From the NCBI GenBank assembly GCA_046726215.1, contig JBKPAA010000039.1, forward strand, positions 14,619 through 78,618: 64,000 nucleotides of DNA, written 5' to 3'. Shown piece after piece: positions 4,627-63,191 of this stretch. Below the pieces are notes generated by a model. That model worked only from the letters and a program-made list of their open reading frames with translations, did no database searches and was not told where the DNA came from. The translations under genes and the position numbers were made by a program. Position 1 is the first letter of the stretch. Each line of letters opens with the position of its first letter. Origin of the DNA: Actinomycetota bacterium (GTDB taxonomy: Bacteria; Actinomycetota; Acidimicrobiia; Acidimicrobiales; VFJN01).

Positions 4627-4646
4627 TCCCGCCACTCCATCGCCTC

Positions 4647-4760: not shown

Positions 4761-4879
4761 CGCGAGCTGGTCCAGCCTCACCGCTCGGGTGTCCGCGATA
4801 TCGGAGCAGAACGGATGACGTCAGGCAGGCGCATGTGGAACCCATGGCCTCGGGTCGGGCCGTGGCCGGGCCCGCCGGG

Positions 4880-31020: not shown

Positions 31021-31094
31021 GCCCTCGTAGCTCAGGTGGATAGAGCGACCGCCTCCTAAGCGGTAGGCCACAGGTTCGAGTCCTGTCGGGGGCA
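31021..31094 (+). tRNA. tRNA-Arg (anticodon CCT)
   Basis: Manual cloverleaf. Acceptor GCCCTCG/CGGGGGC (one G-U), D arm GCTC-AGGTGGATA-GAGC, anticodon arm ACCGC-CTCCTAA-GCGGT, T arm ACAGG-TTCGAGT-CCTGT, discriminator A. CCA is not encoded. Confidence 0.9.
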
Positions 31095-31146
31095 CCGCGA
31101 AAGTGCCAACTAGATGGCGGCTCGGCCTCGGGAGGCAGGTCGATCG

Positions 31147-31520
31147 TCAGCGGGCGGCGCTCACCGCCTCGGCGACCCGGCGGCGGGCCCGTCCGGGCGC
31201 CGGCAGGGGGTGGCAGACGGCAATGGCCCGCTTGAGGAGCCGGTGGGCGTCGTGCTCGCACGTGTAGCCCGATGCCCCCGAGCACCTGGATGCGGTGCTG
31301 CGCGGCCCGGGATGCGGCCTCGGGTGCCAGCGCCGCCGCCTGGGCCACCATGCCGCGCCCGGCTCGCGGGCGTCGATGCAGCGGGCCGCGTACCAGACCG
31401 CGGCACGGGCCGCCTCCAGATCACCTCGACATGGCCTCGACCATGCGCGCCATCGTGGCCATCGTCGGCGGCGGATCGCCGACGAGTGGGAGGCCGAGCA
31501 CGAGGCCGGCCACCCAACGC
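31147..31520 (-). pseudogene. Acyl-CoA dehydrogenase C-terminal remnant with frameshifts
   Basis: ACAD-like segments are split over two minus-strand frames: GDLEAARAAVWYAARCIDAREPG / MVAQAAALAPEAASRAAQHRIQVLGGIG / GYTCEHDAHRLLKRAIAV. No N-terminal two thirds of the enzyme is present. Confidence 0.5.
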
Positions 31521-31676
31521 TGGAGCGGCTCAGGGCCGCGACGGTCGGCCCGGCCAGGATCGGCTTCGATCGCGACCTGCGCGCCCTTCGGGGAGCACGC
31601 GGTCCAGGGCTGACGAGCGCCTGGCCCGAGCCCGTTGACAGCCGCTGCACTCGTCCGTAGGTTTCGGGCATACCGC

Positions 31677-31690
31677 TGACAACGTTGTCA
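31677..31690. promoter_or_regulatory. LacI-family operator candidate
   Basis: Perfect 14-bp palindrome TGACAACGTTGTCA, centred on CG, ending 38 nt upstream of the LacI-family gene start. Confidence 0.5.
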
Positions 31691-31727
31691 CCGGTCGGAC
31701 CGACGCCCCGGTTGGGGGGTCAAACCC

Positions 31728-32747: not shown

Positions 32748-32836
32748 GCTTCGGCCCTGGGACCACCCCGGCGGATGCCGCGACGCTGGTCGCGCCCAGC
32801 CGGCGCTGGTTGGCTCGCGATGGGGGGTCCGGAATT

Positions 32837-32862
32837 CGGCCGCGGCACCAGGGCCGCGGCCG
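32837..32862 (+). terminator. Hairpin between lacI-like gene and SBP gene
   Basis: A 9-bp GC stem cggccgcgg / ccgcggccg with an 8-nt loop. No clear U-tract. Confidence 0.35.
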
Positions 32863-32897
32863 CGACAGCTATCCACCAACCAACAGGGGGTTCCCCG

Positions 32898-34247: not shown

Positions 34248-34349
34248 CCCCGATCCCGAACCCCCAAGCCTGCGGTGGTCAGGGAGCCCTGCAACCCTGA
34301 CCACCACAGGTTGGACGGTGGGGGTGCCGACCCGCCAGGAGGCACCTGC

Positions 34350-35240
34350 ATGTATCGCATCCGCAAGTGGGGCCCCGCCCTCTTGCTCGTGTCGCCGTCG
34401 TTGGCGGTGCTCGGCGTGTTCGTCTACGGGTTCCTCGGCTGGAATCTCCGGGTGTCGGTGAGCGACTGGCGGGGCTTCCGGCCCACCTACGCCTACTCCG
34501 GCTTGCACAACTACACACGGCTGCAGGACGACTCGCGCTTCACCAACGACGTGACCAATCTCGTCGTGTTCACCACGGTGTTCGTCGTGGGCGCGCTGGT
34601 TGTGGGCTTTCTCCTTGCGGCGTTGCTGGAGCGCGGGGTCAGGGGGGAGGGGTTCTTCCGGGGCGTGTTCCTCTTCCCCATGGCGATCTCGTTCATCGCC
34701 ACCGCCATCGTCTGGCGTTGGCTGCTGAACAACGCCGGCGGCAGTCAGCAGACCGGCTTCAACAAGCTGTTCGACAGCGTGGGGCTGGGTTTCCTGGCCA
34801 ACGACTGGTTCAAGGCCGAGCGACCGTGGGCGGTCGCCGCCGTCGCCATCCCCGCGGGCTGGGCGCTGTCGGGGTACATCATGGCCCTGTTCCTGGCCGG
34901 CATGCGGGGGGTCTCCGACGACCTGCGCGAGGCCGCCCGCGTCGATGGCGCCAACGAGCCGCGGGTCTTCTGGTACGTGGTGCGCCCGATGCTCGTGCCG
35001 GTGCTGATGAGCGCGGTGGTGATCCTGGCCCACATCTCGCTCAAGACGTTCGACCTCATCTACGCCCTCGACCAGGAGAGCCGTCGGATCGAGACACCGG
35101 CGCTCTACATGTGGTTCACGACCTTCGACGGGCTCAACTTCTCGCGGGGCGCCGCCATCGCCACCCTGCTGGTGGCGGGCATCTCCCTGATCATCGTCCC
35201 CTACATCTGGTACTCGATCCGCTCGGAGCGGCGGACGTGA
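34350..35240 (+). CDS. Sugar ABC transporter permease
   Basis: ATG 34350 after AGGAGG. Six TM segments with an EAA-like loop DLREAARVDGAN. Confidence 0.88.
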   Translation: MYRIRKWGPALLLVSPSLAVLGVFVYGFLGWNLRVSVSDWRGFRPTYAYSGLHNYTRLQDDSRFTNDVTNLVVFTTVFVVGALVVGFLLAALLERGVRGEGFFRGVFLFPMAISFIATAIVWRWLLNNAGGSQQTGFNKLFDSVGLGFLANDWFKAERPWAVAAVAIPAGWALSGYIMALFLAGMRGVSDDLREAARVDGANEPRVFWYVVRPMLVPVLMSAVVILAHISLKTFDLIYALDQESRRIETPALYMWFTTFDGLNFSRGAAIATLLVAGISLIIVPYIWYSIRSERRT

Positions 35241-36136
35241 GCGCGCTCACCACCGCTCCCGCGCCCGCACCGTTCCCCGCGCCGACCGGCCCCGCCGACC
35301 GCCCGGCGCGCATCCGCTCGCGCTGGTCGGGGCAGGTCACCACCGCCCGCTACCTGGCGCTGTTCGCCCTGGTCTGCATCTTCCTGATCCCCGTCTACGT
35401 CCTCGTGGTGACGGCGCTCAAAGACCCGACCGAGGTCAGCGTCTCGCAGATGTGGCAGCTCCCCGACTCGCTGTCGCTGGACACGTTCCGCGAGGTGTGG
35501 CCGAAGCTCGAAGACGGCTTCCGCAACAGCCTGGTCATGGCCGTGCCCGCGAGCATCATCTCCTCGCTGCTGGGCGCCGCCAACGGGTTCGTGCTGTCAA
35601 AGTGGCGTTTCCCCGGAGCCGACTTCGTGTTCCCGCTCATCCTCTTCGGCATGTTCATCCCCTACCAGGCGATCCTCATCCCGCTGAACCAGACGATGAA
35701 CAACCTGGAACTGCACAACCTGACCGGCCTGACCCTCGTCCACATCATCTACGGGCTGCCGATCACCACCCTGATCTTCCGCAGCTACTTCGCGGGCATC
35801 TCCGACGAGCTGATGGACGCCGCCCAGGTCGACGGCGCGGGCATGCTGCGCACGTTCGCCTTCGTGGCCCTGCCCATCGCCCTGCCGGCGTTCGCGGTCT
35901 CGATGATCTGGCAGTTCACGTCGGCGTGGAACGACTTCCTCTTCGGGGTGGTGCTCACGTCGGCCGGCGACTGGCCGGTCACGGTCGCGCTCAACAACAT
36001 CGCCGGCAGCCAGGTCGTACCGTTCCACGAGGCGATGGCCGCAGCGCTGCTGGCGAGCATCCCGACCCTGATCGTCTACGTGCTGGTCGGGCGGCTGTTC
36101 ATGCGTGGGCTCATGGCGGGCGCGCTCAAGGGGTAG
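35237..36136 (+). CDS. Sugar ABC transporter permease
   Basis: GTG 35237 overlaps the upstream TGA (GTGA). EAA loop ELMDAAQVDGAGMLRTF. Confidence 0.88.
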   Translation: MSALTTAPAPAPFPAPTGPADRPARIRSRWSGQVTTARYLALFALVCIFLIPVYVLVVTALKDPTEVSVSQMWQLPDSLSLDTFREVWPKLEDGFRNSLVMAVPASIISSLLGAANGFVLSKWRFPGADFVFPLILFGMFIPYQAILIPLNQTMNNLELHNLTGLTLVHIIYGLPITTLIFRSYFAGISDELMDAAQVDGAGMLRTFAFVALPIALPAFAVSMIWQFTSAWNDFLFGVVLTSAGDWPVTVALNNIAGSQVVPFHEAMAAALLASIPTLIVYVLVGRLFMRGLMAGALKG

Positions 36137-36140
36137 CGAG

Positions 36141-37364
36141 ATGGAAGAGACGGTCGACCAGTCCACGACGCAGGCGGAGGCCCCCGACGCCGAGGCCCCG
36201 GTGATGGCCCGCGAGCCCGTGGGCATCCGGTTGGAGAATGTGACCAAGCGCTTCCGCGGCGGCGTGGAGGCGGTCCGCGACCTGTCCCTGACGGTGGAAG
36301 CGGGCGAGTTCATCGTGCTGGTCGGGCCGTCGGGGTGCGGCAAGTCGACGGTGCTGCGCCTGATCGCCGGCCTCGAGGAGCTGACCCGCGGCCGCATCTA
36401 CCTCGGCGACAAGGACGTCAGCACGCAGCTCCCCCAGCACCGGGACGTGGCGATGGTGTTCCAGAGCTACGCGCTGTACCCGCGGATGTCGGTCCGCCGA
36501 AACATGGGCTTCGGGCTGCGCATGCGCCGGACGCCCAAGGCCAAGCGCAACCGGCGCGTCGCCGAGGTCGCCAGGACGCTCGGTCTCGAGGACCTGCTCA
36601 ACAGGCGCCCGGCAGCCCTCTCCGGCGGCCAGCGCCAACGGGTCGCCATGGGGCGGGCCATCGTGCGCGAGCCGCGTGTCTTCCTGATGGACGAGCCGCT
36701 GTCCAACCTCGACGCCAAGCTGCGGGTCAGCATGCGCGCCCAGCTGTCGCTGCTCCACCAGCGGCTCGGTGTGACGACCGTCTACGTGACCCACGACCAG
36801 GTCGAGGCGATGACGCTCGGCCAGCGGGTCGCCGTGCTGCGCGACGGCGTGCTGCAGCAGTACACGACGCCGAAAGAGCTGTTCCACAACCCCGTCAACC
36901 TGTTCGTCGCCGCCTTTATCGGCTCGCCGGCGATGAACTTCGTCCACGCGACGGTGGCGGGCGGAGCGGCGAGGTTCGCGGACGTGACGCTGCCGCTGCC
37001 CGCTGGCTCGTCCCTCGCTGTCGCCGACCGGCGCGTGGTCCTCGGTGTCCGGCCGACCGGCTTCTCGCCGGCGTCGGACAACGGCTGGCCCGGGCTGGAC
37101 GCGGTCCCCGAGGTGGTCGAGGAGCTCGGCGACGAGCGCTACGTAGTCTTCGACATCGACGCCCCGCGGGTCGACACCGACGCAACGAGGGCGGCCGTCG
37201 ACGCCCGAGCCGACGACGCCCTACTGCTGCCCGAGGATCGGGCCCGGTTCACTGTCCGGCTGCCCACGGAGGTCCACGTGGCGGTCGGCAAGCCCCTGTC
37301 GCTGACCATCAACCCGGAGCGCGTCCACTTCTTCGACCCTGACACCGGCGAGGCACTGGCCTGA
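36141..37364 (+). CDS. Sugar ABC transporter ATP-binding protein (MalK/UgpC/MsiK-like)
   Basis: Walker A GPSGCGKST, signature LSGGQRQRVAMGRAI, Walker B FLMDEPLSNLD, and a C-terminal TOBE-like domain. ATG 36204 is an alternative start. Confidence 0.9.
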   Translation: MEETVDQSTTQAEAPDAEAPVMAREPVGIRLENVTKRFRGGVEAVRDLSLTVEAGEFIVLVGPSGCGKSTVLRLIAGLEELTRGRIYLGDKDVSTQLPQHRDVAMVFQSYALYPRMSVRRNMGFGLRMRRTPKAKRNRRVAEVARTLGLEDLLNRRPAALSGGQRQRVAMGRAIVREPRVFLMDEPLSNLDAKLRVSMRAQLSLLHQRLGVTTVYVTHDQVEAMTLGQRVAVLRDGVLQQYTTPKELFHNPVNLFVAAFIGSPAMNFVHATVAGGAARFADVTLPLPAGSSLAVADRRVVLGVRPTGFSPASDNGWPGLDAVPEVVEELGDERYVVFDIDAPRVDTDATRAAVDARADDALLLPEDRARFTVRLPTEVHVAVGKPLSLTINPERVHFFDPDTGEALA

Positions 37365-37530
37365 GGGCGATTCACATTGGGCGCTGTGGCGGGCCGGGGG
37401 CGTGCTCACCGACGAGATCTCGACCACCGCGCTCACTGTCGGCCTGCGGACGGCGGCCGGCTCTTGGCTCGACGATCGCACCGACGCTGGCTGCCTACTC
37501 ACGCTTGCGGCCGAGACCTGTGGTGGGCCG

Positions 37531-37725
37531 AGGTGCAAGAACAGGTGCAATACACCAGCGGAATCCATGGACGTGGCGTCACCTGATGGAGGCTTCCGCC
37601 GACGACAACCAGCTCAGCGGACTGGAGCCGATGCCCTGGACGATCGGCCGCAGTCTGCTAGGCGGTAGGCCGCAGGTTCGAGTCCTGCCGGGGGCACCAC
37701 AAAAGTGCTGGTAGATGTGGGTTTC
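37531..37725 (+). repeat. att-like module A (left arm + diverged tRNA-Arg 3' half)
   Basis: Left arm with aggtgcaagaacaggtgcaat and gacgacaaccagctcagcgga..cctggacgatcgg. tRNA-like segment 37655-37699 (ctgctaggcggtaggccgcaggttcgagtcctgccgggggcacca), followed by the aaagtgctggtagatg flank. Confidence 0.75.
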
Positions 37726-43307: not shown

Positions 43308-43861
43308 GTGCTTGCTCCTGACCTGAGCCGTCGGTGGTGGTCACCGGGTAGGACTGCCGCGGCTGACGCAACTCATCGGCAAGGGGACCGGGACGCTAGC
43401 TGCACCGGAAGGACCACCGGGGCGAGAGACTGGCATCGGAGATCGGGAAGGATCGGGATGGGCGGCCGGTGGGAGGGTCGGACCCTCCGCCTGCTCGGCC
43501 CGACGGAGGGTCGTCACTCGCGGATGATGCGCGGTCGGAGGGCTTTGACGCTGCGATCTGGCATGGCGGACCCGGTCCGGGATCTATCGCGATCCTCGAT
43601 GTTCTGATTGAGTATGTGAGTAGGTCTGCATCGTCGTTGGTGCCGCTGTTCCGGTCCGAGCAGCAGCTGCGACGGCTGACGGTGTTGTGAGCTCCACGGC
43701 TGCGGCCTCACCGTCGATGACCGCCGAAGCCAGGATCTGGACCTTACGCAGGACCCAAACTCCGGCGACACCGGCGGACGGGAGCGCACGGAGCGGACGG
43801 GGCGGCGGAACCAGTGCAGGTCAGCGGACCCAGACGCACGCCGAGGATTGCCGCACGGCGC

Positions 43862-44000
43862 CTCCTAAGCGGTAGGCCGCAGGTTCGAGTCCTGCCGGGG
43901 GCACGGCAAAGGTGCTGGTGGATGGTTTCCCGAGCCTGGCCACCCGAGGTGTACCGGTGTGCTTGCGAGCGGCATCCAGGTGCAGTACACCTCTTGGTAC
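43862..44000 (+). repeat. att-like module B (tRNA-Arg 3' half + right arm)
   Basis: 43862-43904 is ctcctaagcggtaggccgcaggttcgagtcctgccgggggcac. It is followed by the flank aaaggtgctggtggatgg and right-arm repeats caggtgcagtacac and ggtacaccc/ggtatacc. No conserved left arm. Confidence 0.75.
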
Positions 44001-44164: not shown

Positions 44165-45205
44165 GTGGATCGCTCGGGCGAGCACCACCTGTGGACGGGC
44201 TCGAAGAAGGCTGACGGCACCGGCAAGTTGAAGGTCGACGGCAAGGCTGTCACGGCGCAGCGCATCGCCTGGGAACTTGTGCACGGCCAACTGCCACCAG
44301 GAACTGACGTGCTGGCGTGTCCGGAGGACAGAGCGTGCGTGCGGATCGAGCATCTCTCTCTTTGGCGATCGCCGAGTGGGCGTCGTGGCGGGCCCAGGCG
44401 TGGCCGGTCGCGAGGGGGCGGCTCGAAGGTCGAGGTCCGGCCTGGTGTGTGGAAGCTGAGCGTCAGCGCGGGTCGCTTTGACGATGGATCGGTGCGCCGG
44501 GTGCACCGCACCGTGGGGGCGGGCACCGCGGCCGAGTCGGCGCGGTTGCTGGCCGAGTTCGTCACCGAGGTACACAACTCGCCGTTGCCGGACAAGAAGA
44601 CCGACCGCGACATCACCATTGACGAGGCGATCGAACGGTTCTTGACCGAATACCTCTTGAGGGAGAAGGGTCGTGATCTCCGCACGGTCCTGAACTACCG
44701 AGGCGTGCACGCCAAGTGGTTCTCGCACGAGATCGGCAGTCGACGTGTAGCCGATGTTGACGAGGCGGCGATCGACCGGAACTTCGGGCGGATGCGCGCG
44801 GCCGGCTTGAGCGCGTCCCGGTTGCACGACGCCCGCAATCTGTACCTGCCGTTCTTCCGCTGGGCGAAGCGCCGCGGGATCATCCGCCGCAGTCCCATGG
44901 CCGACTTCGAGCTGCCGACCAGCAGCCATGTCGCCACCGAGCACACGCCGGCCGAGGTCGATCAGCTTTGCATGTACCTGCAGGCCGCGCTCGAAGTGGT
45001 CCCGGACGCGGCGCCGGCTCTGGTGCTCGGTGCCGTCACGGGCATGCGTCGTGGTGAGCTGGTGGGCTTGCGGAGGTCACGTTTGTTTCCGAACCAGAGC
45101 AAGATCACGGTCGACACCGCGAGCGACAACCGCCGGATCAAGACCACGAAGACGCGCAAGGCCCCTCCGAGAACTACCCACCCTGGATGGGCGCCGGTCA
45201 GGTAA
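44165..45205 (+). pseudogene. int: Tyrosine integrase, 3'-truncated
   Basis: N-terminal HHLWTG...CVRIEHL DNA-binding module and a SAM-like core-binding region. The catalytic domain begins with the first Arg (GMRRGELVGL) but ends shortly after TKTRK. The HxxR and Tyr motifs are absent. Located directly beside att-like module B. Confidence 0.7.
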
Positions 45206-53750: not shown

Positions 53751-54030
53751 CAGGTGCAAGAGCAGGTGCAATGGTCCAGCGAAACCCACGGACTCGGTGG
53801 CACTCCGTGGACGACGTCGCTGGCGACAGCCAGCTCAGTGGACTGCAGGGGACCGCCTGGACGATCGGCCACGGTCTCCTAAGCGGTAGGCCGCAGGTTC
53901 GAGTCCTGCCGGGGGCACCGCGAAGGTGCTGATAGGTGGTGTGAAGCGCGCCGAGGCGACAGACTCAGGTGCAAGTGCAGGTGAAATGCCTGGTGGTCGG
54001 TACGCCTCGTCGCCTCGTCGGTACGCCTCG
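53751..54030 (+). repeat. att-like module C (left arm + tRNA-Arg 3' half + right arm)
   Basis: Left arm caggtgcaagagcaggtgcaat ... gacagccagctcagtgga..cctggacgatcgg. Core 53876-53919. Right arm caggtgcaagtgcaggtgaaat plus two tcggtacgcctcg repeats. Confidence 0.75.
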
Positions 54031-54194
54031 CTGGTCGGTCATGCGCTCGCGTGCACTCGCTGACGGTTGCTGGGTGGGTGATGCTGCAGGCCTCCTTCCC
54101 GGTCTATGTCCCTAGGCCACGTTCTCGCCGAGACATCGCGAGATTTCGGGGGCCGGTCGCGGTGACGACGGCGGGCTGCCTGTGCTGGGGTGGG

Positions 54195-56645
54195 TCAGAA
54201 TGGCTCGTTCCCGGCGCGGTCATTGGGGGCCTGGCTGGGGGCGGGCCCGTGGCGGTGCGAGGGCCGGGGCGGCCGGGGCAGGGTGAAGCCAAGGGTGGCG
54301 TAGGCCCGGCGGCGCTCGTTGTGCATGCGAGCGAGCACCGGGACACGGGTGTCGACGTAGTCGTGGACCTCGACGCGTGTCTTGGTGTCGGTCGGGCGGA
54401 GGACGCGGCCGACGTACTGGATGACGCTGCCTTTGAACTTGATGGGGAAGGCGAGGAACAGGGTGTCGAGGGGTGGGCAGTCGAAGCCTTCGCCGAGCAG
54501 GCTGGCGGTGGCGGCGAGTACGAGGCCTTCGTCGGGTGAGGGGTCGGCGAGGCGGTCGATGACCACCGTGCGAGCCTTCTTGCCCATGTCGCCGTGTAAG
54601 ACAAGGGGATCGATGCCCAGGGTGGTCAGGTCCTGGGCGATGGCGTCAAGGTGTTCCTTCCAGCGGGTGAGCACGATGCAGTTGCGACGGGCGTGGGCGG
54701 CGGCAGCGATGTCTTGACAGATCGCCGTGGTGCGTTGTCGGTCCTCGACAAGGCCGCGGAAGACCGCCTGGATGTGCTGGCCGTCATCGGTGTCTTCGTG
54801 GTCGGTCTCGTGGACCACGAGGTCGAGGGCTCGCAGCGCGCTTCCGGACGGGGTGGTCATGGTGTGGCGCACCGGTCCGCAGTGCATCGCCATCAGCGCC
54901 TGGAGTCCGTCCCGCCGGTACGGCGTCGCGGTCAGTCCCGCCCACCGACGGACCGGGATCTGGCGTACCGCGCGCTCGAAGGTGACGGCGGGGACGTGGT
55001 GACATTCGTCGACGATGACCAACCCATAGCGCCCGGCCAGCTCGGCGATGTCGTCACGGCGGGCGACGCTTTGCACCATTGCCACATCGACGATGCCCGT
55101 GGCGCGGCGGCGGCCACCGCCGAGCTGGCCGATCTGTCGGGCGCTGAGATCTAGGTGGGTGGTGAGCCGGTCGCGCCATTGTTCGACGAGTGGCTTGCGG
55201 TCGACGATCACGAGGGTCGGTACCTTGTGGCGGGCGATGAGAGCGCAGCCGATCACGGTCTTGCCCGACCCGGGCGGCGCTACGAGCATTCCCATGTCGT
55301 GGGCGGCTATGGCGTCGGTGGCAGCGGTCTGGTCGGGCGTCAAGTCGGCCTGCAGCTGGACGTCAAGGGTGGCCACCTCGGGGCAGCCGTCGACGACCTT
55401 GAGGCGGCTCCCTGCCTCGTCGACCAGAGTTTCGGCTTGTTGGCGCAGCCCTCGGGGGAGCAGCAACTGGTCGAGTGTCTCCTGGTAGCAGCGGATGAAC
55501 CGTGGTGTGTTCCACGTCGAGAAGCGCAGCCTCTCCTTCTCGTGGAACTCGGGGTTGTGCAGCGAAGCCAGGTGCTTGAGCGCCGCGAGCAGCGCGGGCG
55601 GGATCCCGATCCGGTCGACACTCAACATCGCGCCAGCGAGGGCAACGATCTGCGCCGGGGGCCTCGCGGTCGGCTGGTCGCGGGCGGGCCGCCGGTAGGT
55701 GGAGGCGTCAGGCCCGGTCGCCAGATCCCCCAACGCCTTGGCGAGCGCATTCGCAGATTCGGTGCTGAGACGCTCGAGCTGGGCGAGGAACGTCCACTGG
55801 TCCTCGACGGGTTCGAGGCTGGTCGGGTCGAGGAACACGGTGGTGCCGCGCTGGCGACAGTCCCGCTGCAGTGGCAACGCAATGAGGTTGCCGAACGAGC
55901 CCTTAGGCATGAAGTCCTGGGCGGGGAACAGACGGTCATAGCTGCCCAGGTCGAGCTCGGCTCGGACCGTCATCGCTTCCCGTAACATGCCGACACCGAT
56001 CCGCCTCGCTGAGGCGGCCGGGACAGGTGCGGCAAAGAACATCCACACATGCCCGCCGTCACCCGACCGCGAGCGCTCCAGCGCGGCATCGATGCCGGCG
56101 GACCGGGCGGCATCCAGGTAGGCCAACGCGTCGAGGACCCATCCAGGCCCGTCGAAGTCACACGCCAACAGCCGGCAGGCATCGCCCCGCATGAGTGGGT
56201 AGAGGCCCGCGTGGATCTCACCCGCCAGATGTCGCGCGACGACGTCGTCAGTGAGGGGCAGGTGCTCGCGGTCGGGGCGGCGGGCGTTGCGCCACCCACC
56301 CCGCACGGCCGGACTCCATCCCGCCTTGCCGGTTCGCTCGTTCTCCCACCGCAATGCATGCACATCGTCGCGCCCTGCGAACAACGATCGGAACAGCGCG
56401 AGCTTCGCCTCGCGCGGCGAGCTGCGGTCGATCTCGGCCCACTTGGACATCGGCTCTGCCCGATCGGGAAACAGCGACGGCGACCAGGCCGCGGTGGGTC
56501 CCTCACCGATGCGAGTTGGGTCTTCGAGTCCCAACAGCCGACGCAGTCGGGCATTCTCGGCGCGAAGCTGCGCCAGCTCGGCGTGCAGCGCTGTTGCCTC
56601 GGCGATTGCGGCATCCGCCTCAACAGCCCTACGCGCAGCGGTCAC
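54195..56645 (-). CDS. Archaeo-eukaryotic primase (AEP)-like domain fused to an SF2 (DEAD/DEAH-type) helicase
   Basis: N-terminal coiled coil. AEP motifs LLACDFDG (DxD), SRSGDGGHVWMFF (sGxGxH), YDRLFPAQD..GSFGNLIALPLQ. Helicase motif I APPGSGKT, II VIVDECHH, III GLTATP, VI QYVGRVLR. The GTG start overlaps the upstream stop. Confidence 0.9.
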   Translation of the reverse strand: MTAARRAVEADAAIAEATALHAELAQLRAENARLRRLLGLEDPTRIGEGPTAAWSPSLFPDRAEPMSKWAEIDRSSPREAKLALFRSLFAGRDDVHALRWENERTGKAGWSPAVRGGWRNARRPDREHLPLTDDVVARHLAGEIHAGLYPLMRGDACRLLACDFDGPGWVLDALAYLDAARSAGIDAALERSRSGDGGHVWMFFAAPVPAASARRIGVGMLREAMTVRAELDLGSYDRLFPAQDFMPKGSFGNLIALPLQRDCRQRGTTVFLDPTSLEPVEDQWTFLAQLERLSTESANALAKALGDLATGPDASTYRRPARDQPTARPPAQIVALAGAMLSVDRIGIPPALLAALKHLASLHNPEFHEKERLRFSTWNTPRFIRCYQETLDQLLLPRGLRQQAETLVDEAGSRLKVVDGCPEVATLDVQLQADLTPDQTAATDAIAAHDMGMLVAPPGSGKTVIGCALIARHKVPTLVIVDRKPLVEQWRDRLTTHLDLSARQIGQLGGGRRRATGIVDVAMVQSVARRDDIAELAGRYGLVIVDECHHVPAVTFERAVRQIPVRRWAGLTATPYRRDGLQALMAMHCGPVRHTMTTPSGSALRALDLVVHETDHEDTDDGQHIQAVFRGLVEDRQRTTAICQDIAAAAHARRNCIVLTRWKEHLDAIAQDLTTLGIDPLVLHGDMGKKARTVVIDRLADPSPDEGLVLAATASLLGEGFDCPPLDTLFLAFPIKFKGSVIQYVGRVLRPTDTKTRVEVHDYVDTRVPVLARMHNERRRAYATLGFTLPRPPRPSHRHGPAPSQAPNDRAGNEPF

Positions 56646-56935
56646 GGCGGCCCAACGATCTCGAAGGCCGGGTGACCTCCCATCGCCCCCATGGTGGCCG
56701 AGTCGAGGTGCCGCGTCGAAGCATGCCCGGACGCCAGGCCGTCCGGCGCGTCACCAGATCCGAAGGCAAGTAGGTGGCCACCGAGCTCCGCGCCCGCCAA
56801 GTCGTCATGGCTGACGATGACTACAACCAGCTCGCTGATCGCACGATCGCCGAGGGAGTGAACCGTCACGCCTCGAACCGCCGTGTTCCCCGCCCTGACA
56901 TGCCGCAATACGTCGGTCTCGGTTCGGCCGATCAA
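56642..56935 (-). CDS. Hypothetical protein (97 aa) translationally coupled to the AEP-helicase
   Basis: TTG start. Third-position GC is clearly higher than in the competing plus-strand ORF 56774-57079. Its stop overlaps the helicase GTG (GTGA). No recognisable motif. Confidence 0.4.
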   Translation of the reverse strand: MIGRTETDVLRHVRAGNTAVRGVTVHSLGDRAISELVVVIVSHDDLAGAELGGHLLAFGSGDAPDGLASGHASTRHLDSATMGAMGGHPAFEIVGPP

Positions 56936-57006
56936 GTCTCCGCGAAGGACGTCATCGACGAGCGCGGCAGACGCGCCTCGAGACGGCTCCTGCGTGGAGC
57001 TCCACT

Positions 57007-57192
57007 CTACCTGGCTCTGGCTCGATACTCCTCAAGGGCGTCCGCAGGAATGTGGGCGATGCCGTTGACCATCACGTAGCGGAGCTCGTGCTGGTAGATG
57101 AGTCGGATGATCTCGCGCGTAGAGACGCCTAGGCGCCGAGCCGCCTCGGACGCCCGCAGCGGCTCAGTGGTTGTCTGGTCCCGGCCAGTCAT
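57007..57192 (-). CDS. Excisionase/MerR-like helix-turn-helix DNA-binding protein (61 aa)
   Basis: LRASEAARRLGVSTREIIRLIYQHELRYVMVNGIAHIPADALEEY fits the Xis-type HTH_17 pattern. Confidence 0.7.
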   Translation of the reverse strand: MTGRDQTTTEPLRASEAARRLGVSTREIIRLIYQHELRYVMVNGIAHIPADALEEYRARAR

Positions 57193-57370
57193 CGAATCCA
57201 AGCTTATGGCTCAGGATGCGGATCTGATGTTCGACAGTGACGACGAGGCTGAGTTGGTTGGCGGTGATGAGCGCGTCACGGGCGTCGTCGAGGTCGGCGA
57301 GCAGCGCGAGTGCCTCGTCGAGTTCGTACCAGACTTGACGAGGCGGCTCTCGCCGGGCCGGATCGCTCAT
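57164..57370 (-). CDS. Small hypothetical protein (68 aa)
   Basis: ATG 57370 is the first gene inward from att-like module D. Helical, acidic sequence (YELDEALALLADLDDARDALITANQL). Confidence 0.5.
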   Translation of the reverse strand: MSDPARREPPRQVWYELDEALALLADLDDARDALITANQLSLVVTVEHQIRILSHKLGFDDWPGPDNH

Positions 57371-57416
57371 CAGGTGGAACCTAGTCACGGTCGCGGCCGT
57401 CAACCTGCGGTCGGGC

Positions 57417-57690
57417 CAGGTGCAATAGCGGGTGCAATACTTCAGCGCAGTCCGTGGACTCGGCCACACGGGATGAATGATCTGGCCGACGACACCCAGC
57501 TCAGCGGACACCAGCGAACGCCCTGGACGATCGGTCACGGTCTCCTAAGCGGTAGGCCGCAGGTTCGAGTCCTGCCGGGGGCACCGTTGCCGGGGGCACC
57601 GCGAAACTGCTTGTGAGGGCGCTACGGCTTCGTTGGGAGGTGAACCGTCAGGTGCAGTACACATGTCGGTACGCCCGTAGGCCCAGGGAT
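57417..57690 (+). repeat. att-like module D (left arm + tRNA-Arg 3' half with internal duplication + right arm)
   Basis: Left arm caggtgcaatagcgggtgcaat ... gacgacacccagctcagcgga..cctggacgatcgg. Core 57542-57600, containing a duplicated gccgggggcacc separated by gtt. Right arm caggtgcagtacac and cggtacgcc. Confidence 0.75.
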
Positions 57691-57894: not shown

Positions 57895-58254
57895 TTGGCG
57901 GAATTCAGAATCCTGGGGACCTTCCAGGTCATCTCCAACGGCGCGAGCCTTCAGCTGGGCCCGCGGAAGCAGCGTGCCCTCCTGGCGATCCTGCTCCTGA
58001 ACGTCAATCAGATCGTTTCCACCGACCTCATCGACGTCATCTGGGGAGGCCGCGCCCCGAGATCGGCGGCCCGTTCGTTGCAGATCTTTGTCTCGGAGGT
58101 GCGGCGGATCCTTTCCGAGCTTCGGATGCTGGGCTCGTTCGACGTCTGGGGCACTGACGGGGTCGTCGGTGTGCGTGTGGACGCCCACCGCTTTGGTGGC
58201 GGGATGGGCGGCAGCTGGCACCGAGCCCGACCTTGCGGGTCCGGCTGTGGTTGA
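57895..58254 (+). CDS. SARP/OmpR-type winged-helix DNA-binding domain ORF (119 aa; possibly the detached N-terminus of the next gene)
   Basis: FRILGTFQVISNGASLQLGPRKQRALLAILLLN..VSTDLIDVIWG..SLQIFVSEVRRIL..VDAHRF matches the AfsR/SARP N-terminal pattern. It ends in a different frame, 8 nt after a candidate GTG of the next gene. Confidence 0.6.
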   Translation: MAEFRILGTFQVISNGASLQLGPRKQRALLAILLLNVNQIVSTDLIDVIWGGRAPRSAARSLQIFVSEVRRILSELRMLGSFDVWGTDGVVGVRVDAHRFGGGMGGSWHRARPCGSGCG

Positions 58255-61006
58255 GCAGGGCACGGCGGCCCGCGGCGCTACGGACGGCTGGTGCCCGCGC
58301 ACGTTCCTGATGACCGACATCGTCGATTCGGTGTCGCTGTGGGAGCGCGACCCGGTGGCGATGTCGCAGGCGGTGGCGTGGCACGACACGGTCATCCAGG
58401 ACGCGGTCGATGCTGCGGGCGGCCAGATGCTGAGAACCAAGGGTGAGGGCGACTCGACGTTCTCGGTCTTCGAACACCCTGCCGGTGCACTTGCCGCGGC
58501 GGCGGATGTCCAAGAGGCGGTTACCGGCGAGCCGTGGCCGTCGATGATGGCGGTGCGGGTGCGCGTCGGCGTGCACACCGGGGATGCGGAGCCGCGTGAC
58601 GGCGACTGGTACGGGCCGGCGGTGAACCGTGCCGCCCGGCTGCGGGCTCTGGCCGACGGCGGGCAGACACTCGTGTCGGGGGTGAGCGCAGGTCTGGTGG
58701 CCGATCGGATGCCCAAGACGGTTCGGCTGCTGTATCTCGGGCGGCGGGTCCTGCGCGGCATCGAGCGGCCCGAAGAGGTATGGGAGCTGGTTCGAGCTGA
58801 CGACCCGAGAATGGCCATTCCGATCTGGGTCAGGGTCGGCGAGCTGCCGGTCGCGCGTACGCGCTTCGTTGGTCGTACCGAGGACCTCGACGATCTCGCG
58901 GAACTGATCCAAACCGAACAGCTGGTCACGCTCACCGGGCCCGGGGGTAGCGGAAAGACCAGATTGGCGCTCGAGGTGGCGAGGTGCGCTCGACGACGAG
59001 GCGTGCGGGTTTGGCTGGCCGAGCTGGCGCCGTTGCGAGACCCGGGTTTGGTGGCCCAGGCGGTTGCCAAGGCGATCGGCCTCGAAACCGGACCAGATCC
59101 GCTGGAGGAACTGCTTGCTCAAGCAGACACGCTTGCCGGGGTTTTGGTGCTCGACAACTGCGAGCACCTGCTCGACGCCTGTGCAGCGCTCACCGAACGG
59201 TTGCTGGTGGCTGCGTCTGACATCCGGGTGCTGGCCACGAGCCGGGAGCCGCTGCGTCTGACCGGAGAGCGAGAGTGGCCCGTTCGATCCCTGGACGTAC
59301 CGGACGAGTCGCTACGGGACCCAGCCGGACTGGCTCGAGTCGAGTCGGTCCAGTTGCTGATCGACCGGGCCCGAGCAGTCCGGCCCGACTTGGATGTCGG
59401 CCAGGATGACGTCATGCCGCTCGTGCAAATCTGCCGCGCTCTCGATGGGGTTCCACTGGCGATCGAGTTGGCAGCCAGCCGACTGCGCTCGCTCGGTGTC
59501 GCTGAGCTGGCCGCCCGACTTGGTGACCAGCTGGCGACGCTCGCACGGCCCATATCCACCTGCCGGGACGACGCCCGGCACCGGTCCCTTCGCATGACCC
59601 TCGATTGGAGCTACGAGCTTCTGACCGAAGAGCAACGCAAAGTTGCCCAGCGCCTGTCCGTGTTCGCTGGCGGGTTCCGCGTCGATGCCGTCGAGGCCGT
59701 GTGCGATAGCGGCGTCGACGTGCTCGACAGCGTCGAGGAGCTGGTTGCCAAGTCCCTGCTCAGCTTCGACGGCACGACCGCCCGGTACCGGCTGCTCGAA
59801 CCGCTCCGCCAGTATCTTGCCGAGCGCTTGGCCGCATCCGGCACGACCGAGGTCGCTCGACGGGCGCACGGGGAGTGGACGGCGAGTCTTTGCCGGCGGT
59901 TGGGCTTCGGCCTGCTGCAGGATCTCAGGGCCCGCAGCACCCGACTCCGCGAGGAGAGCGCCAACGTCGAGGTGGCCCTGCACTGGGCGCTCGAACACGG
60001 CGAACACGAGACTGCGTTGCGAATCGTCGGATCGCTCGGCCAGTACTGGTTCTTCAACGACAACGCTGCCGGCGACCGCTGGTGCGCCGCGGTGATCGAG
60101 GCCAGCGCGTCAGCCCCTCCTCGGCGGCGAGCGCCGGCGCTACTGAGCGCTGGCATGGTGGCCCAGAACGATCAGGCTTGGGACCGGTCGCTGGCCTGGC
60201 TCCACGAGGCACTGGCCATCTACCGGGCCGAACAGGTGGCCCCAGGCCAGGCGGCGGCCCTGTTCTGGCTAGGACGTGCGCACGGCGACCCGGCGGAAGC
60301 CAAACGCTGCTTCGGCGAGAGCCTCGAGCTGTCCATGCAGCTCGGCGAGCGCGTTGGAGGCGGCATGTGTCGAGTCTTCATCAGCGTGCTGGCGGCCCGG
60401 GACGGAGACCTGGACGAGGCGGTGCGGCTGGCGGAACAGGTCGTCGAGGAATGCTGTGCGAGCGCGGTCCACTATCCGGTGGGCCAAGCACTGGTCCTCC
60501 TCGCGTCCATCGCACACCGTCGCGGCCAGGACGACGCCGCTCGCACGTTCCTCCGCGACGCGGTGACGCACAGCCGAGACGTCGACGACCGCCGGCAGCT
60601 GCCCGCGGTGCTGATCGATCTGGCCGCGCAGGAAGCAAGCATGGGACATGGCGCCGAGGCGCTCCAGGCCCTCGCAGAGTCGTCGCAGCTGGATGAGCAG
60701 ATAGGACGACTGCCAAGCCGGTCCTACCAACTCGCCGTCGCGGCCTGGGTGCATCTGGCGCGCGACGAACGGGTGCTGGCGATCTCAGCGCTGGGCGGCT
60801 ACGACGCGCACCCCAGCGAGTTCGCCATCCCGCCCTTCGGCAGGATCGGTGGGCACGTCAACTGGCTCGACCCTGCAGCCATGGCGGCCATGCGAGCCAG
60901 GCTGGACCCGGACGCGGTGGCCGCGGCCGCCGCCATGGCACGCGCCAGATCGCTCGACGGACTCATCGATGAGCTGATCATCCAGCCAGCCGAGGACGCC
61001 AAGTGA
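58247..61006 (+). CDS. Class III nucleotide cyclase domain - NB-ARC-like STAND NTPase - TPR protein
   Basis: Cyclase motifs RTFLMTDIVDS, KGEGDSTFSVF, RVGVHTGDAE and GPAVNRAARL. Walker A GPGGSGKTRLALE, Walker B VLVLDNCEHL, then VLATSREPL. TPR-like C-terminus. The 5' end is uncertain (track ORF starts at 58088). Confidence 0.85.
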   Translation: MVEQGTAARGATDGWCPRTFLMTDIVDSVSLWERDPVAMSQAVAWHDTVIQDAVDAAGGQMLRTKGEGDSTFSVFEHPAGALAAAADVQEAVTGEPWPSMMAVRVRVGVHTGDAEPRDGDWYGPAVNRAARLRALADGGQTLVSGVSAGLVADRMPKTVRLLYLGRRVLRGIERPEEVWELVRADDPRMAIPIWVRVGELPVARTRFVGRTEDLDDLAELIQTEQLVTLTGPGGSGKTRLALEVARCARRRGVRVWLAELAPLRDPGLVAQAVAKAIGLETGPDPLEELLAQADTLAGVLVLDNCEHLLDACAALTERLLVAASDIRVLATSREPLRLTGEREWPVRSLDVPDESLRDPAGLARVESVQLLIDRARAVRPDLDVGQDDVMPLVQICRALDGVPLAIELAASRLRSLGVAELAARLGDQLATLARPISTCRDDARHRSLRMTLDWSYELLTEEQRKVAQRLSVFAGGFRVDAVEAVCDSGVDVLDSVEELVAKSLLSFDGTTARYRLLEPLRQYLAERLAASGTTEVARRAHGEWTASLCRRLGFGLLQDLRARSTRLREESANVEVALHWALEHGEHETALRIVGSLGQYWFFNDNAAGDRWCAAVIEASASAPPRRRAPALLSAGMVAQNDQAWDRSLAWLHEALAIYRAEQVAPGQAAALFWLGRAHGDPAEAKRCFGESLELSMQLGERVGGGMCRVFISVLAARDGDLDEAVRLAEQVVEECCASAVHYPVGQALVLLASIAHRRGQDDAARTFLRDAVTHSRDVDDRRQLPAVLIDLAAQEASMGHGAEALQALAESSQLDEQIGRLPSRSYQLAVAAWVHLARDERVLAISALGGYDAHPSEFAIPPFGRIGGHVNWLDPAAMAAMRARLDPDAVAAAAAMARARSLDGLIDELIIQPAEDAK

Positions 61007-62526: not shown

Positions 62527-63074
62527 TGAGCGTGCAAGCCGACGACCGCAGTCGCTTCGACGTTGCCACCTTCGCCGCCGCTCGCAGTCTTTCGATGCGA
62601 ACGGGGTCCACGTGCTGCATGACGGCAGGGTCGCCCTGGTTCAGTGACCCCGACCGCAAGTCCTTCGCCGTCGAGGAGTAGCCGCGTGAGCAGATCGACG
62701 TCTGCCGACGCGACGCACGTGTTGTACGACTAGGCCGGCGGCGCCAGCGGGATCTCGGCGCCTGATCCATGCGTTGTACGATCGTGTCGAGCGCGATGAC
62801 CCGGAGTTCCGCTCAGCTCTTGTCTCGTACCTCGAATCGGGCACGCGCCTCGCGCAGCAGAGTTCTCAGCCCGGCGCCAAGGGTTGTTGAATACGCCCTG
62901 TTCCGCACTGGGGCTGGGGCGAGGCACTGTCCTATCGGCCCGACTGAGCCGACCGACACAGGGTCGAACATCTATCGATGCGCCTGCGAGTCTCGACCTT
63001 CAACGTGCAGCACGACGAGGGCCACTCGCGGCGCACCAGCCGCGCCGCATCACGGTTCTTGCCCGAGGTGGGCG

Positions 63075-63176
63075 GTCAACGTGTAGGCGATGTCGACGAG
63101 GCGTCGATCGACCCGAACTTCGGGCGGAAGCGCCGGGCTGGCTTGAGCGCGTCCCGCCTGCACGACGCCCGCAATG
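63075..63176 (+). pseudogene. Integrase gene remnant (~100 nt)
   Basis: Aligns by eye with 44739-44839 of the truncated integrase at high nucleotide identity. Encodes ..VDEASIDPNFGRKRRAGLSASRLHDARN versus ..VDEAAIDRNFGRMRAAGLSASRLHDARN. Confidence 0.65.
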
Positions 63177-63191
63177 CGTCTCAGCGGTGCG

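Follow-up and report, generated by a model that had tools for sequence, protein, structure and literature searches.

An integrase-less, att-flanked unit encoding a PrimPol-helicase in a tRNA-Arg(CCT) array: a probable non-autonomous integrative element

The window analysed here, a 64-kb stretch (64,000 nucleotides) of an Acidimicrobiia-type genome, contains a tRNA-Arg(CCT) gene that is followed downstream by a stack of four or more units, each ending with a left arm of ~125 nt and a copied tRNA 3′ half. The segment at 53.9-57.6 kb is the fourth of these units. Its parts, and those of the surrounding array, are the following.

31021..31096, + strand: tRNA-Arg(CCT), anchor of the array on the attL side (ARAGORN; Rfam RF00005, 67.8 bits)
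37531..37708, + strand: att module A (left arm and tRNA 3′ half), closing unit 1, which contains LacI and a sugar ABC transporter; AGGTGCAA pair at 37531 and 37543
43738..43915, + strand: att module B, whose arm is of a second class marked by GGACC-type motifs, closing unit 2, which contains a GH3 glycosidase and RibD_C
53752..53875, + strand: left arm of module C, part of unit 3 and not of the cassette; AGGTGCAA pair at 53752 and 53764
53876..53929, + strand: core C, left boundary of the cassette, a tRNA-Arg 3′-half copy that starts at the anticodon loop and runs ~10 nt past the tRNA end
53930..54035, + strand: right arm of C, which is the cassette's P′-type arm; holds CAGGTGCAA / CAGGTGAAA repeats plus a twofold GTCGGTACGCCTCG repeat
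54036..54194, − strand: non-coding DNA downstream of the helicase gene, conserved and ~98% identical to the copy in contig L001
54195..56645, − strand: AEP PrimPol and XPB-like SF2 helicase, 816 aa, with an N-terminal coiled coil
56646..57006, − strand: spacer that separates the helicase gene from xis, holding a doubtful 97-aa ORF (56642-56935)
57007..57192, − strand: excisionase-family HTH protein, 61 aa, candidate Xis / recombination directionality factor
57164..57370, − strand: orf68, acidic two-helix protein, 68 aa
57418..57541, + strand: left arm of module D, which is the P-type arm of the cassette itself, with a AGGTGCAA / GGGTGCAA pair and TGGAC(GATC) repeats
57542..57601, + strand: core D, right boundary of the cassette, in which 14 nt of the tRNA 3′ end are duplicated in tandem
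57602..57680, + strand: right arm of D (CAGGTGCAGTACAC...GGTACGCC; family D6), part of the next unit
57895..61006, + strand: next unit, with a SARP-like N-terminal ORF and a 972-aa cyclase-STAND-TPR protein (Pfam)

The copies of the tRNA-Arg 3′ half lie at 37655, 43862, 53876 and 57542, against a chance expectation of zero matches, and all four carry G...C in the T-stem where the tRNA gene has A...T. Alignment places the conserved left arm (family D1) in front of every copy, and the modules are pairwise 75-100% identical across ~170 nt. Exact AGGTGCAA occurs at six sites in the 64 kb, all of them within modules, on the + strand and mostly as pairs spaced by 12 nt. On many contigs, 22 modules in total keep this left arm and its motif pair, and a search for RNA covariation within the arm found none. 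The att-like modules C and D described in the first-pass annotation are therefore real, with left arm, tRNA-Arg 3′ half and right-arm repeats all located, and core C lies where it had been placed (53876-53919). Module C is indeed a complete att module, but its left arm is owned by the neighbouring unit: between the window and L001 this arm is 82-85% identical while arm D is 99% identical, a pattern that fits site-specific recombination. Oddly, the window and L001 differ strongly in the right arm of C (69% identity, as opposed to 81% with contig L008). Core D proper spans 57542-57585 and reaches 57601 only because of the 14-nt tandem duplication (57573-57586 and 57588-57601), which is also found in contig L025 and is absent from L001. 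The cassette had been described as lacking integrase, partition and conjugation genes, and this absence extends to the rest of the array, where no recombinase was detected by Pfam in all GC3-supported ORFs or by tblastn with four integrases. The stretch at 54036..54194 occupies the position of the integrase gene in the related elements L005 and L003, and tblastn with the four integrases found no integrase trace in it.

Upstream of the helicase gene, the 61-aa protein, initially read as a Xis/MerR-type HTH, has excisionase-type matches (HTH_17, 2.4e-7; TIGR01764, 1.5e-7) and is conserved in L001, L025, L036 and L037. The acidic helical 68-aa protein also proved to represent a conserved family, with 26 homologue clusters and an identical call in L025, and is modelled by AlphaFold as a helical hairpin (pLDDT 82); orf68 is always paired with xis and in L036 is placed between int and xis. 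The 97-aa gene fared differently. Its ORF exists but probably does not represent a gene: the L001 copy differs by an indel, ~55 nt are inserted in L025, a third-position bias is lacking, the ORF is uncalled in relatives, and homology to L002 and L008 breaks inside it at 56734, where a swappable upstream module starts. The spacer at 56646..57006 is probably non-coding. No iterons or origin-like repeats were found in the unit.

The architecture first read from the 816-aa ORF, a coiled coil with AEP motifs and an SF2 core, was confirmed by profile searches, which returned PF22548 (AEP-TOTE, E=1.8e-75), ResIII and Helicase_C in Pfam. The DxD, SRS..G.H.W, GKT, DECH, TATP and Q..GR..R motifs are invariant in homologues across phyla, of which there are more than 7660. 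Structure searches matched the protein to solved CAPP PrimPol and XPB structures, the AEP domain being homologous to MpCAPP (7nqd/7nqf, E about 1e-16). Its best PADLOC match is the CRISPR-associated PrimPol model (9e-87), which PADLOC classes as 'Cas-associated' and not as a stand-alone system; the NCBIfam CAPP model also matches, but with a score of 68 far under the cutoff of 200, and neither cas genes nor a CRISPR array lie near the unit. PrimPol relatives outside CRISPR loci mostly include a helicase domain and are located in mobile elements (PMC8211822).

Since Pfam names PF22548 the 'TOTE conflict system AEP domain' and NCBI names homologues in the same way, the cassette could constitute or belong to a TOTE conflict system, as implied by the defence reading of the first-pass annotation, and a TPR-containing STAND protein is encoded just beyond module D. 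The domain label is correct, and this AEP family is common to the unit and to the TOTE systems of 2022 as cited in PMC12458937. However, that paper defines TOTE systems by TPR-OB (cold-shock domain) and TBP genes together with an effector, whereas the small ORFs of the cassette match no TPR, OB/CSD or TBP model. The neighbouring TPR protein has BTAD, AAA_16 and cyclase domains and no OB domain, lies outside the unit and is non-adjacent in L001. Because the defining TPR-OB and TBP partners are absent, membership fails, and we reject this reading as highly improbable.

The unit recurs in other assemblies. Positions 9019-12857 of L001 correspond to 57584-53753 of the window at 95% nucleotide identity with unrelated flanks, and L025 has the unit at 91% identity in a third genomic context, without the C-side module. 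In all three contexts the D-side boundary of the shared block coincides with the core. The helicase block is also kept in L008 and L002, joined there to another upstream module, and in L008, at 86% nucleotide identity, the layout is the same, the helicase stop being followed after ~250 nt by the core. Three genes, xis, orf68 and that of the helicase, are intact among the copies, and purifying selection acts on them, with a dN/dS of 0.16-0.26 for the helicase gene at dS values up to 0.34. Judged by these comparisons the integrase-less layout is old and maintained, and the 3.7-kb stretch appears as a real small mobile DNA unit. Related elements encode a SAM_3-type tyrosine integrase, and an integrase gene adjoins the helicase gene in L003, L009, L012, L018 and L021. 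One of the integrase-bearing relatives, L005, is a complete 5.7-kb element that extends from tRNA-Met to a perfect 45-nt repeat and has its own paired arm repeats. The array in L001 includes a unit with an integrase, a 319-aa XerC/D-like protein next to a partial arm, and L006 retains a 45-aa integrase remnant.

The same data bear on the idea that the integrase was deleted and that the cassette is now plain chromosomal DNA, its other copies being due to vertical descent and homologous recombination among the repeated modules. An array without any recombinase, the integrase decay in L006, the loss of a module in L025 by deletion or rearrangement and the diverged right arm of C would all suit such an inert relic; moreover, the resemblance among the modules could support homologous exchange, and decay of this kind is the standard proposed origin of CIMEs (PMC5704250). 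We nevertheless consider it improbable, given that three genes are maintained by selection, that the block ends at the core in three contexts, that the arm with its motif pair is kept so widely, and that copies only 86% identical have the integrase-less layout in common.

On balance we think it somewhat probable that the DNA at 53876-57601, cores C and D included, forms a non-autonomous integrative unit using an integrase in trans, and that its PrimPol-helicase replicates the excised circle. The unit consists of the two arms that belong to it, the right one following core C and the left one preceding core D, each with AGGTGCAA-type arm repeats, a putative control module made up of orf68 and the Xis-type HTH protein, and the PrimPol(AEP)-XPB-like helicase as the third part. 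As it has no integrase, it would have to borrow one: we infer that an integrase encoded elsewhere binds arms and core and, together with the unit's Xis and probably orf68, releases a circle whose attP would combine the left arm of D, the core and the right arm of C. The same integrase would then put the circle back into the tRNA or into another array module. Searches for an integrase matching these arms identified none, the only nearby one being the XerC/D-like protein of L001, and searches for circular or empty-site junctions, including terminal overlaps in short contigs, found none. The satellite-like island that borrows an integrase was the better supported of the two readings first offered, with the same unit in unrelated flanks, conserved arms, integrase-bearing relatives and purifying selection in its favour.

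The least secure step is replication. Most likely the PrimPol-helicase primes and unwinds the excised circle, which would allow the circle to be kept, and the presence of PrimPol relatives in mobile elements counts for a mobile-element reading (PMC8211822, PMC5862659). Some evidence, however, goes against the first-pass view of the AEP-helicase as replication initiator: the ~100 plasmids with a protein of this type all measure 47 kb or more and bear replicons of their own, so that no small plasmid relies on it, and in L037 the helicase has been replaced. The lack of iterons and origin-like repeats in the unit counts in the same direction, as does the occurrence of the gene inside Tn3-family transposons and next to recombinase trios. 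Nor are SF2 helicases of the XPB type known as the usual choice for replication in mobile elements.

A live rival, to which we give a smaller though appreciable chance, is that att arms, orf68 and Xis form the mobile frame and that the PrimPol-helicase is cargo, dispensable for replication of the unit. As an accessory function of one gene it would benefit either the host or the element, possibly through defence against phages or plasmids, counter-defence, tolerance of DNA damage or a contribution to establishment. Besides the plasmids, two relatives point this way. L037 contains the xis-orf68-left-arm block (84%) and a right-arm-like stretch, with a cyclase-STAND-TPR gene at the helicase's place in this frame (2972-5549, 86% identical to window 61014-58117), and L036 has an int-orf68-xis operon without an AEP-helicase within 10 kb. 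The gene also occurs in other settings: in Pantoea and E. albertii a resolvase and a Tn3 transposase flank it, in B. cereus such genes are nearby, and in A. baumannii and L005 it is found beside HigBA; it also lies within Tn3-family transposons and adjoining recombinase trios. Among 50,697 phage records none has the full-length architecture, and the conflict-system label and the PADLOC match would also fit a cargo role. On the other hand, literature searches found no experimental defence phenotype for the AEP-helicase architecture, and the gene has no conserved partner. In both L005 and the window unit it is the sole sizeable gene besides mobility and toxin-antitoxin genes, a position typical of the replication module in small integrative elements such as tycheposons.

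The cassette had been called no textbook element, which is overstated, as the element type is already known and CIMEs, tycheposons and the H47 island are precedents. CIMEs of the Streptococcus ICESt1 family are integrase-less, att-flanked units in tandem arrays (PMC5704250); like our unit they have attL/attR-type flanks at a tRNA 3′ end and no integration or transfer genes of their own, and the mobility of both would rest on the recombinase of another element. CIMEs are, however, described as decayed ICEs or IMEs, whereas the unit keeps xis, orf68 and the PrimPol-helicase gene under selection, recurs integrase-less in several contexts and shows no visible conjugation ancestry. The tycheposons of Prochlorococcus form tRNA-anchored arrays with primase/helicase modules (10.1101/2020.12.28.424599) and are likewise small and tRNA-targeting, with int/xis and cargo; their islands stack with partial tRNA repeats, and most of the island material lacks integrases. 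They differ in phylum and in having hallmark proteins unrelated to the AEP and XPB-like SF2 helicase found here, they are defined by the integrase that the unit lacks, and their inter-unit sites are partial tRNAs only, while those of our array keep full arms with conserved arm-type repeats. The E. coli H47 island, whose recombination functions are supplied in trans in a 'parasitic strategy' (PMC3191183), is also small and flanked by extended imperfect direct repeats. It carries microcin genes and neither of the excisionase and primase-helicase present in the unit, and its mobility was demonstrated experimentally, whereas that of the unit is inferred.

Actinomycete elements of the pSAM2 / SLP1 type have actinobacterial hosts, target tRNA 3′ ends and carry xis next to a replication gene, and some of them use prim-pol-type replication proteins. 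Apart from xis, none of their defining genes was found in the unit, which at only 3.7 kb lacks integrase, FtsK-like transfer, spread, Nudix and KorSA genes. The family to which the unit belongs comprises tRNA-integrating elements of very small size, the full form of which adds a SAM_3-type tyrosine integrase.

The window has a GC content of 66-78%, of actinobacterial type, and contains a single tRNA gene, tRNA-Arg(CCT) at 31021-31096. Downstream of it, on the same strand, lie four copies of its 3′ half that start in the anticodon loop and end about 10 nt beyond the 3′ end, where chance would provide none. Alignment revealed a conserved left arm of about 125 nt directly 5′ of every copy. Left arm, core (the tRNA copy) and right arm make up the modules A to D, which delimit four units.

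Att-like modules and units downstream of tRNA-Arg(CCT); the tRNA 3′-half copies are on the same strand as the tRNA
31.1-37.6 kb, unit 1: LacI and sugar ABC transporter
37655, start of the tRNA 3′-half copy of module A
37.7-43.9 kb, unit 2: GH3 glycosidase, RibD_C
43862, start of the tRNA 3′-half copy of module B
43.9-53.9 kb, unit 3: HNH protein, hybrid kinase/response regulator, PAP2 protein
53876, start of the tRNA 3′-half copy of module C
53.9-57.6 kb, unit 4: the cassette
57542, start of the tRNA 3′-half copy of module D

Because modules of arm and tRNA 3′ half recur in this manner, the cassette represents the last visible unit of a four-unit tandem array. Its two cores, C (53876) and D (57542), are identical to each other over 44 nt and differ from the tRNA 3′ half by two compensating changes in the T-stem; the cassette ends thus carry direct repeats of the 3′ part of the tRNA, as expected of an element integrated at a tRNA gene. 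Exact AGGTGCAA octamers occur six times in the 64 kb, always on the plus strand and inside modules, mostly as pairs 12 nt apart, while CAGGTGCA-type repeats are found in the right arms. Together these two kinds of arm repeat provide putative recombinase-binding motifs.

In the live tRNA the T-stem positions concerned (31075 and 31086) form an A...T pair, which is G...C in all four downstream copies, and modules of the comparison loci L030 and L034 (L numbers denote loci from other assemblies or plasmids) show further compensating variants. The att copies therefore retain tRNA-like pairing. As to the exchange itself, the identity block begins at the anticodon loop and T-stem complementarity is kept in the att copies, which suggests crossover in the anticodon loop, but the evidence is conflicting: a 14-nt duplication at D and a truncated core in L037 indicate the extreme 3′ end instead. 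Module D contains a tandem duplication (57573-57601) of the final 14 nt of the tRNA copy (TGCCGGGGGCACCG); this is common to the window and L025 (about 8933-8975) and absent from L001, and the unit in L037 starts with only the TGCCGGGGGCACCG 14-mer followed by a right arm (about 5900-5915). The duplication may be a trace of the exchange point, or else a secondary event. We also considered the module as a structured RNA and rejected this reading, since Rfam matched the tRNA only and RNAalifold on 16 modules found no covariation.

Two observations concern the neighbouring units. Unit 1 (31100-37530) lies between the tRNA and module A, yet its codon usage is host-like (GC3 0.90-0.94); the same ABC gene together with module A is present at 92.7% identity on a 112-kb metagenome contig (L029, 3-3049), and in L028 (1-597) the DNA beyond module A differs. 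At the HNH-protein gene of unit 3, 135 nt (44718-44852) recur as a direct repeat at 63054-63188, close to the window end, with 84% identity; this may be a second copy of the gene family in the next unit.

The genes that we retain within the cassette are the following.

Genes of the cassette
54195-56645, minus strand, 816-aa PrimPol-helicase: PF22548 (AEP-TOTE), ResIII and Helicase_C
57007-57192, minus strand, xis, 61 aa: HTH_17/excisionase family
57164-57370, minus strand, orf68, 68 aa: narrow family, 26 clusters of proteins of about 68 aa

The first-pass annotation had described an integrase-less cassette bracketed by att-like modules and encoding, beside the large protein, three small ones. 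Cores, arms and reading frames bear this out, and among the small proteins the 61-aa HTH protein and the 68-aa protein belong to recognizable families; the correction concerns the 97-aa ORF, orf97, which we do not accept as a gene for lack of support. It suffers a 1-nt deletion in L001 and an insertion of about 55 nt in L025, it is uncalled in both, its substitutions lack third-position bias, and the homology to L002 and L008 starts inside it, at 56734. A plus-strand ORF in the same interval is likewise broken in L001, and 56646-57006 is treated here as a spacer between xis and the helicase gene. Neither in this spacer nor downstream of the helicase gene did we find iterons or origin-like repeats; a promoter and terminator scan, which is uninformative for such GC-rich DNA, gave no find. 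For orf68 a two-helix hairpin is confidently predicted, with no match at E<=0.001 in a fold search. A longer reading of orf68 (124 aa) proved an artefact, as its first ~40 codons are the left arm and also 'match' arms A and C.

The large protein is, by both profile and catalytic motifs, a member of the AEP superfamily of the PF22548/CAPP-like PrimPol type. PF22548 is matched with E=1.8e-75 (253.9 bits against a cutoff of 27) over profile positions 2-228 of 230, and the PADLOC model of CRISPR-associated PrimPol with 9e-87. With a profile built from the 816-aa protein and seven homologues, the PrimPol domain of Marinitoga CAPP (7nqd/7nqf) was matched at E about 1e-16, and XPB-type helicases (XPBII) at 2e-31. 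The C-terminal part is, judged by motifs and domains, an XPB/Rad25-like SF2 helicase (ResIII, 7.6e-21, for RecA1; Helicase_C, 2.1e-7, for RecA2). The AEP motifs I (D163-F-D165), II (S192-R-S...G197-H199-W201) and the acidic III (Y236-D237...D244) are invariant in eight sequences from three phyla, and so are, in the same eight-sequence alignment, the SF2 motifs Walker A (G461-K-T), DExH (D546-E-C-H), III (T572-A-T-P) and VI (Q743..G746-R..R750). This invariance, which includes an N-terminal coiled-coil motif LRAENARL, extends from Acidimicrobiia to Enterobacterales. The earlier description of an AEP-primase/SF2-helicase fusion, including the AEP fold, is thereby upheld. At E<1e-10 the family numbers more than 7660 proteins, which are spread across phyla, though the majority come from Acidimicrobiia MAGs. 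It is always found on recombinase-driven mobile DNA, be it tRNA-integrating elements, Tn3-family transposons or recombinase trios, and we know of no functional assay of any member to date.

An integrase of its own, as a site-specific integrative element would have, is absent from the cassette. Pfam searches of every ORF with third-position GC support in all four units gave no Phage_integrase or Recombinase match, and tblastn with the integrases of four relatives detected no trace of one in the 64-kb window. Relatives do carry integrases. The complete 5.7-kb element L005 extends from a tRNA-Met to a 45-nt sequence that repeats the 3′ part of this tRNA perfectly. Besides HigBA-like genes and the AEP-helicase it has ORFs of 150 and 117 aa and a 397-aa integrase, the integrase being located between helicase gene and tRNA; its arms have paired direct repeats of their own. 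A SAM_3-type integrase adjoins the helicase gene in L003, L009 (at a tRNA-Pro), L012, L018 and L021; in L006/L007 (tRNA-Leu) it is reduced to a 45-aa remnant. In L036 an integrase gene is followed contiguously by homologues of orf68 and xis, the integrase being full-length if long-read frameshifts are ignored. On the ENA long-read contigs several genes are split by frameshifts with catalytic motifs kept in other frames (L036 9016-10000; the cluster members P0121/P0124, P0127/P0130 and P0128/P0132). These single-base frameshifts are likely sequencing errors, and apparent pseudogenes on such contigs, including the L036 integrase, therefore carry little weight. The array of L001 has a third, partial module, next to which a 319-aa XerC/D-like integrase is encoded; this integrase may or may not be cognate. 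Two XerC/D-like genes similar to it lie just upstream of the helicase gene in the Acidimicrobiia locus L011 (7139-9224).

Searching with the proximal left arm plus core gave ten further metagenomic contigs and not one viral contig. The genes flanking their modules are ordinary cargo, encoding a Na/Ca exchanger, histidine kinase, Rieske oxygenase, alcohol dehydrogenase, peptidase, TetR, acyltransferase and DAG kinase; their flanks show neither integrase nor AEP-helicase. Altogether 22 att modules were compared (window, L001, L002, L008, L025, L026-L035 and L037). The left arm is conserved along its ~125 nt in nearly all of them, the AGGTGCAA pair, which lies outside the search pattern, stands at -124/-112 in 15, and an integrase occurs within 1 kb of a single module. 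As far as these sequences go, units at sites of this type lack an integrase as a rule. In a second, GGACC-type class of left arm, found at module B (43738-43861), in L033 and in L037 (7799-7921), GGACCTTACGCAGGACCCAAACTCC-type motifs take the place of the AGGTGCAA pair, which points to a second integrase specificity for the shared tRNA core.

A more far-reaching possibility, which we think improbable but which is compatible with the rarity of integrases near the modules (1/22) and the conservation of the ~125-nt left arm in nearly all of them, would make the tRNA-Arg locus a cassette platform of integron-like type, peculiar to these Acidimicrobiia. Every unit would then have at its boundaries a complete attP-like module whose arm-type sites are conserved, and one or a few trans-acting integrases would shuffle many recombinase-less multi-gene units (sugar uptake, glycosidase, two-component, oxygenase, STAND-TPR, PrimPol-helicase) within and between genomes. 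The orf68 and Xis pair would be a portable excision module carried by some units only, and the PrimPol-helicase unit a self-amplifying 'hitcher' of the system.

As a block, the unit recurs in three different flanking contexts, which is indirect evidence for excision as a circle and re-integration. In L001, from another assembly, the protein is 97% identical and 9019-12857 aligns to window 57584-53753 at 95%; apart from this aligned unit, only att modules match the window in the 22 kb of L001. The third context is that of L025, whose copy is 91% identical, with the D-side module kept, the C-side one lost, and DNA resembling window unit 2 thereafter. Between the window and L001 the left arm at core D is 99% identical and that at core C merely 82-85%, a contrast predicted by site-specific recombination in tandem arrays, where a left arm would go with the left-hand unit and a right arm with the right-hand one. 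The attP of the cassette would accordingly consist of left arm D, core and right arm C. Unexpectedly, the ~115-nt right arm of C has diverged between the window and L001. In L008 (86% at the nucleotide level) and L002 (89%) the helicase block is kept and homology ends at the shared point 56734, with a DUF6247 gene in place of orf68/xis in L002; the upstream module is therefore swappable. The C side of L008 is likewise integrase-less, with the helicase stop, about 250 nt and then the core. Among integrase-less copies the helicase gene has a dN/dS of 0.16-0.26 at dS up to 0.34, and orf68 and xis are intact. Given the L008 layout and these ratios, the cassette does not look like a fresh wreck. 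None of the 3.4-4 kb contigs with homologues that we checked for a circular form has overlapping termini. The ends of L002 do not join as on the window C side either, and we treat these short contigs as assembly fragments. An empty site was not found in the sequences compared.

The first-pass annotation had proposed a mobilisable island that borrows an integrase and uses the AEP-helicase as replication initiator. The borrowing is largely supported; the role of the protein as replicase of the element is unproven. It would fit the fact that neither the window unit nor L005 has any other large gene. Small integrative elements such as tycheposons typically pair int/xis with a primase/helicase module (10.1101/2020.12.28.424599), bacterial AEPs generally reside on elements integrated at tRNA genes (PMC5862659), and non-CRISPR CAPP relatives are reported to be mostly PrimPol-helicase fusions in mobile elements (PMC8211822). 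A serious rival is that the PrimPol-helicase is cargo of the att/xis/orf68 frame. The full-length architecture is missing from 50,697 phage records, and the roughly 100 plasmids with the protein are all at least 47 kb and all have other replicons. On plasmids the gene is located between resolvase and Tn3 transposase (Pantoea, E. albertii) or close to the two of them (B. cereus), next to a trio of tyrosine recombinase genes (Dinoroseobacter; in L011 two such genes are adjacent), or after HigBA (A. baumannii). In L037, moreover, a block of xis, orf68 and left arm, 84% identical to window 57005-57449, is accompanied by a right-arm-like stretch, and the helicase in the middle is replaced by an 86% homologue of the window cyclase-STAND-TPR gene (58088-61006). 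The frame therefore accepts different central genes, which makes the cargo role a serious rival to that of replicase.

Several neighbourhoods of the AEP-helicase gene deserve mention. Homologues of 31-41% identity stand by a serine resolvase and a Tn3-family transposase in Pantoea stewartii (L022, 6250-10157), Escherichia albertii (L024, 6250-12187) and Bacillus cereus (L040, 4324-11262), with gaps of just 22-28 nt in the enterobacterial plasmids, and resemble genes built into Tn3-family transposons or carried by them as passengers. On Dinoroseobacter shibae pDSHI03 (L038, 4357-10272) three consecutive tyrosine recombinase genes follow the gene. A gene for the xenogeneic silencer Lsr2 adjoins it on an Acidimicrobiia chromosome (L004, 12875-13246) and on Streptomyces chartreusis plasmids (H18, H19). 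Close to the cassette, several assemblies encode large BTAD/STAND/TPR proteins, of which some contain an adenylate/guanylate cyclase domain (window 57895-61006, L001 2745-5838, L025 1942-6010 and 13160-16282, L037 2981-5497). A functional link between them and the cassette is unproven, as gene positions are inconsistent across the window, L001 and L025.

As the alternative, the first-pass annotation had raised a defence cassette and, for the protein, the TOTE conflict-system label. TOTE stands for TPR, OB, TBP and Effector (Aravind, Iyer et al. 2022, as cited in PMC12458937). The domain label is correct, as PF22548 shows; membership of the system fails for want of the TPR-OB and TBP partner genes. 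TPR and OB/CSD domains were not matched in orf68, xis or orf97, nor TBP in any cassette ORF, orf68 being a predicted two-helix hairpin. The neighbouring TPR protein (58088-61006) has BTAD/AAA_16/cyclase domains and no OB, lies outside the unit and is non-adjacent in L001. 'TOTE conflict system primase' is in this case the name of a domain, not of a system. A phage satellite of the PICI or P4-like kind was also rejected: PHROGs matches were confined to helicase, primase and excisionase, with no packaging or capsid genes, the att module is missing from viral contigs, and phage records lack the full-length protein, matching the helicase half only at <30% identity.

The closest concepts are CIMEs, tycheposon arrays and the E. 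coli H47 island. CIMEs keep their att sites, have lost integration and transfer genes and occur in tandem at tRNA genes (PMC5704250); the cassette similarly retains attL and attR without such genes. An origin by decay, as for CIMEs, would agree with the existence of integrase-bearing relatives and with the decayed integrase of L006; on the other hand, we found no conjugative ancestry and no adjacent integrase-bearing unit within the window. Compared by gene content with the tycheposons, a family defined by a gene-sharing network, the cassette has a tRNA island and a candidate replication module and lacks the recombinase. From the AICE set (int, xis, rep, FtsK/SpoIIIE-like tra) it has only xis and a possible rep. 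The H47 island excises and integrates via recombination proteins encoded elsewhere (PMC3191183). In contrast to CIMEs, tycheposons and H47, the cassette keeps an excisionase pair together with a PrimPol-helicase under selection, it recurs in several contexts as one and the same integrase-less unit, and the sites between units have full arms.

Made up of a pair of att sites, the excisionase pair and the PrimPol-helicase gene, the 3.7-kb unit comes close to the smallest natural context of this protein family. To our knowledge, such elements have not been described in this phylum. Islands of the poorly studied Acidimicrobiia may grow by stacking integrase-less units with intact recombination sites, which implies that integrases act in trans and that units are drawn from a common pool open to exchange.
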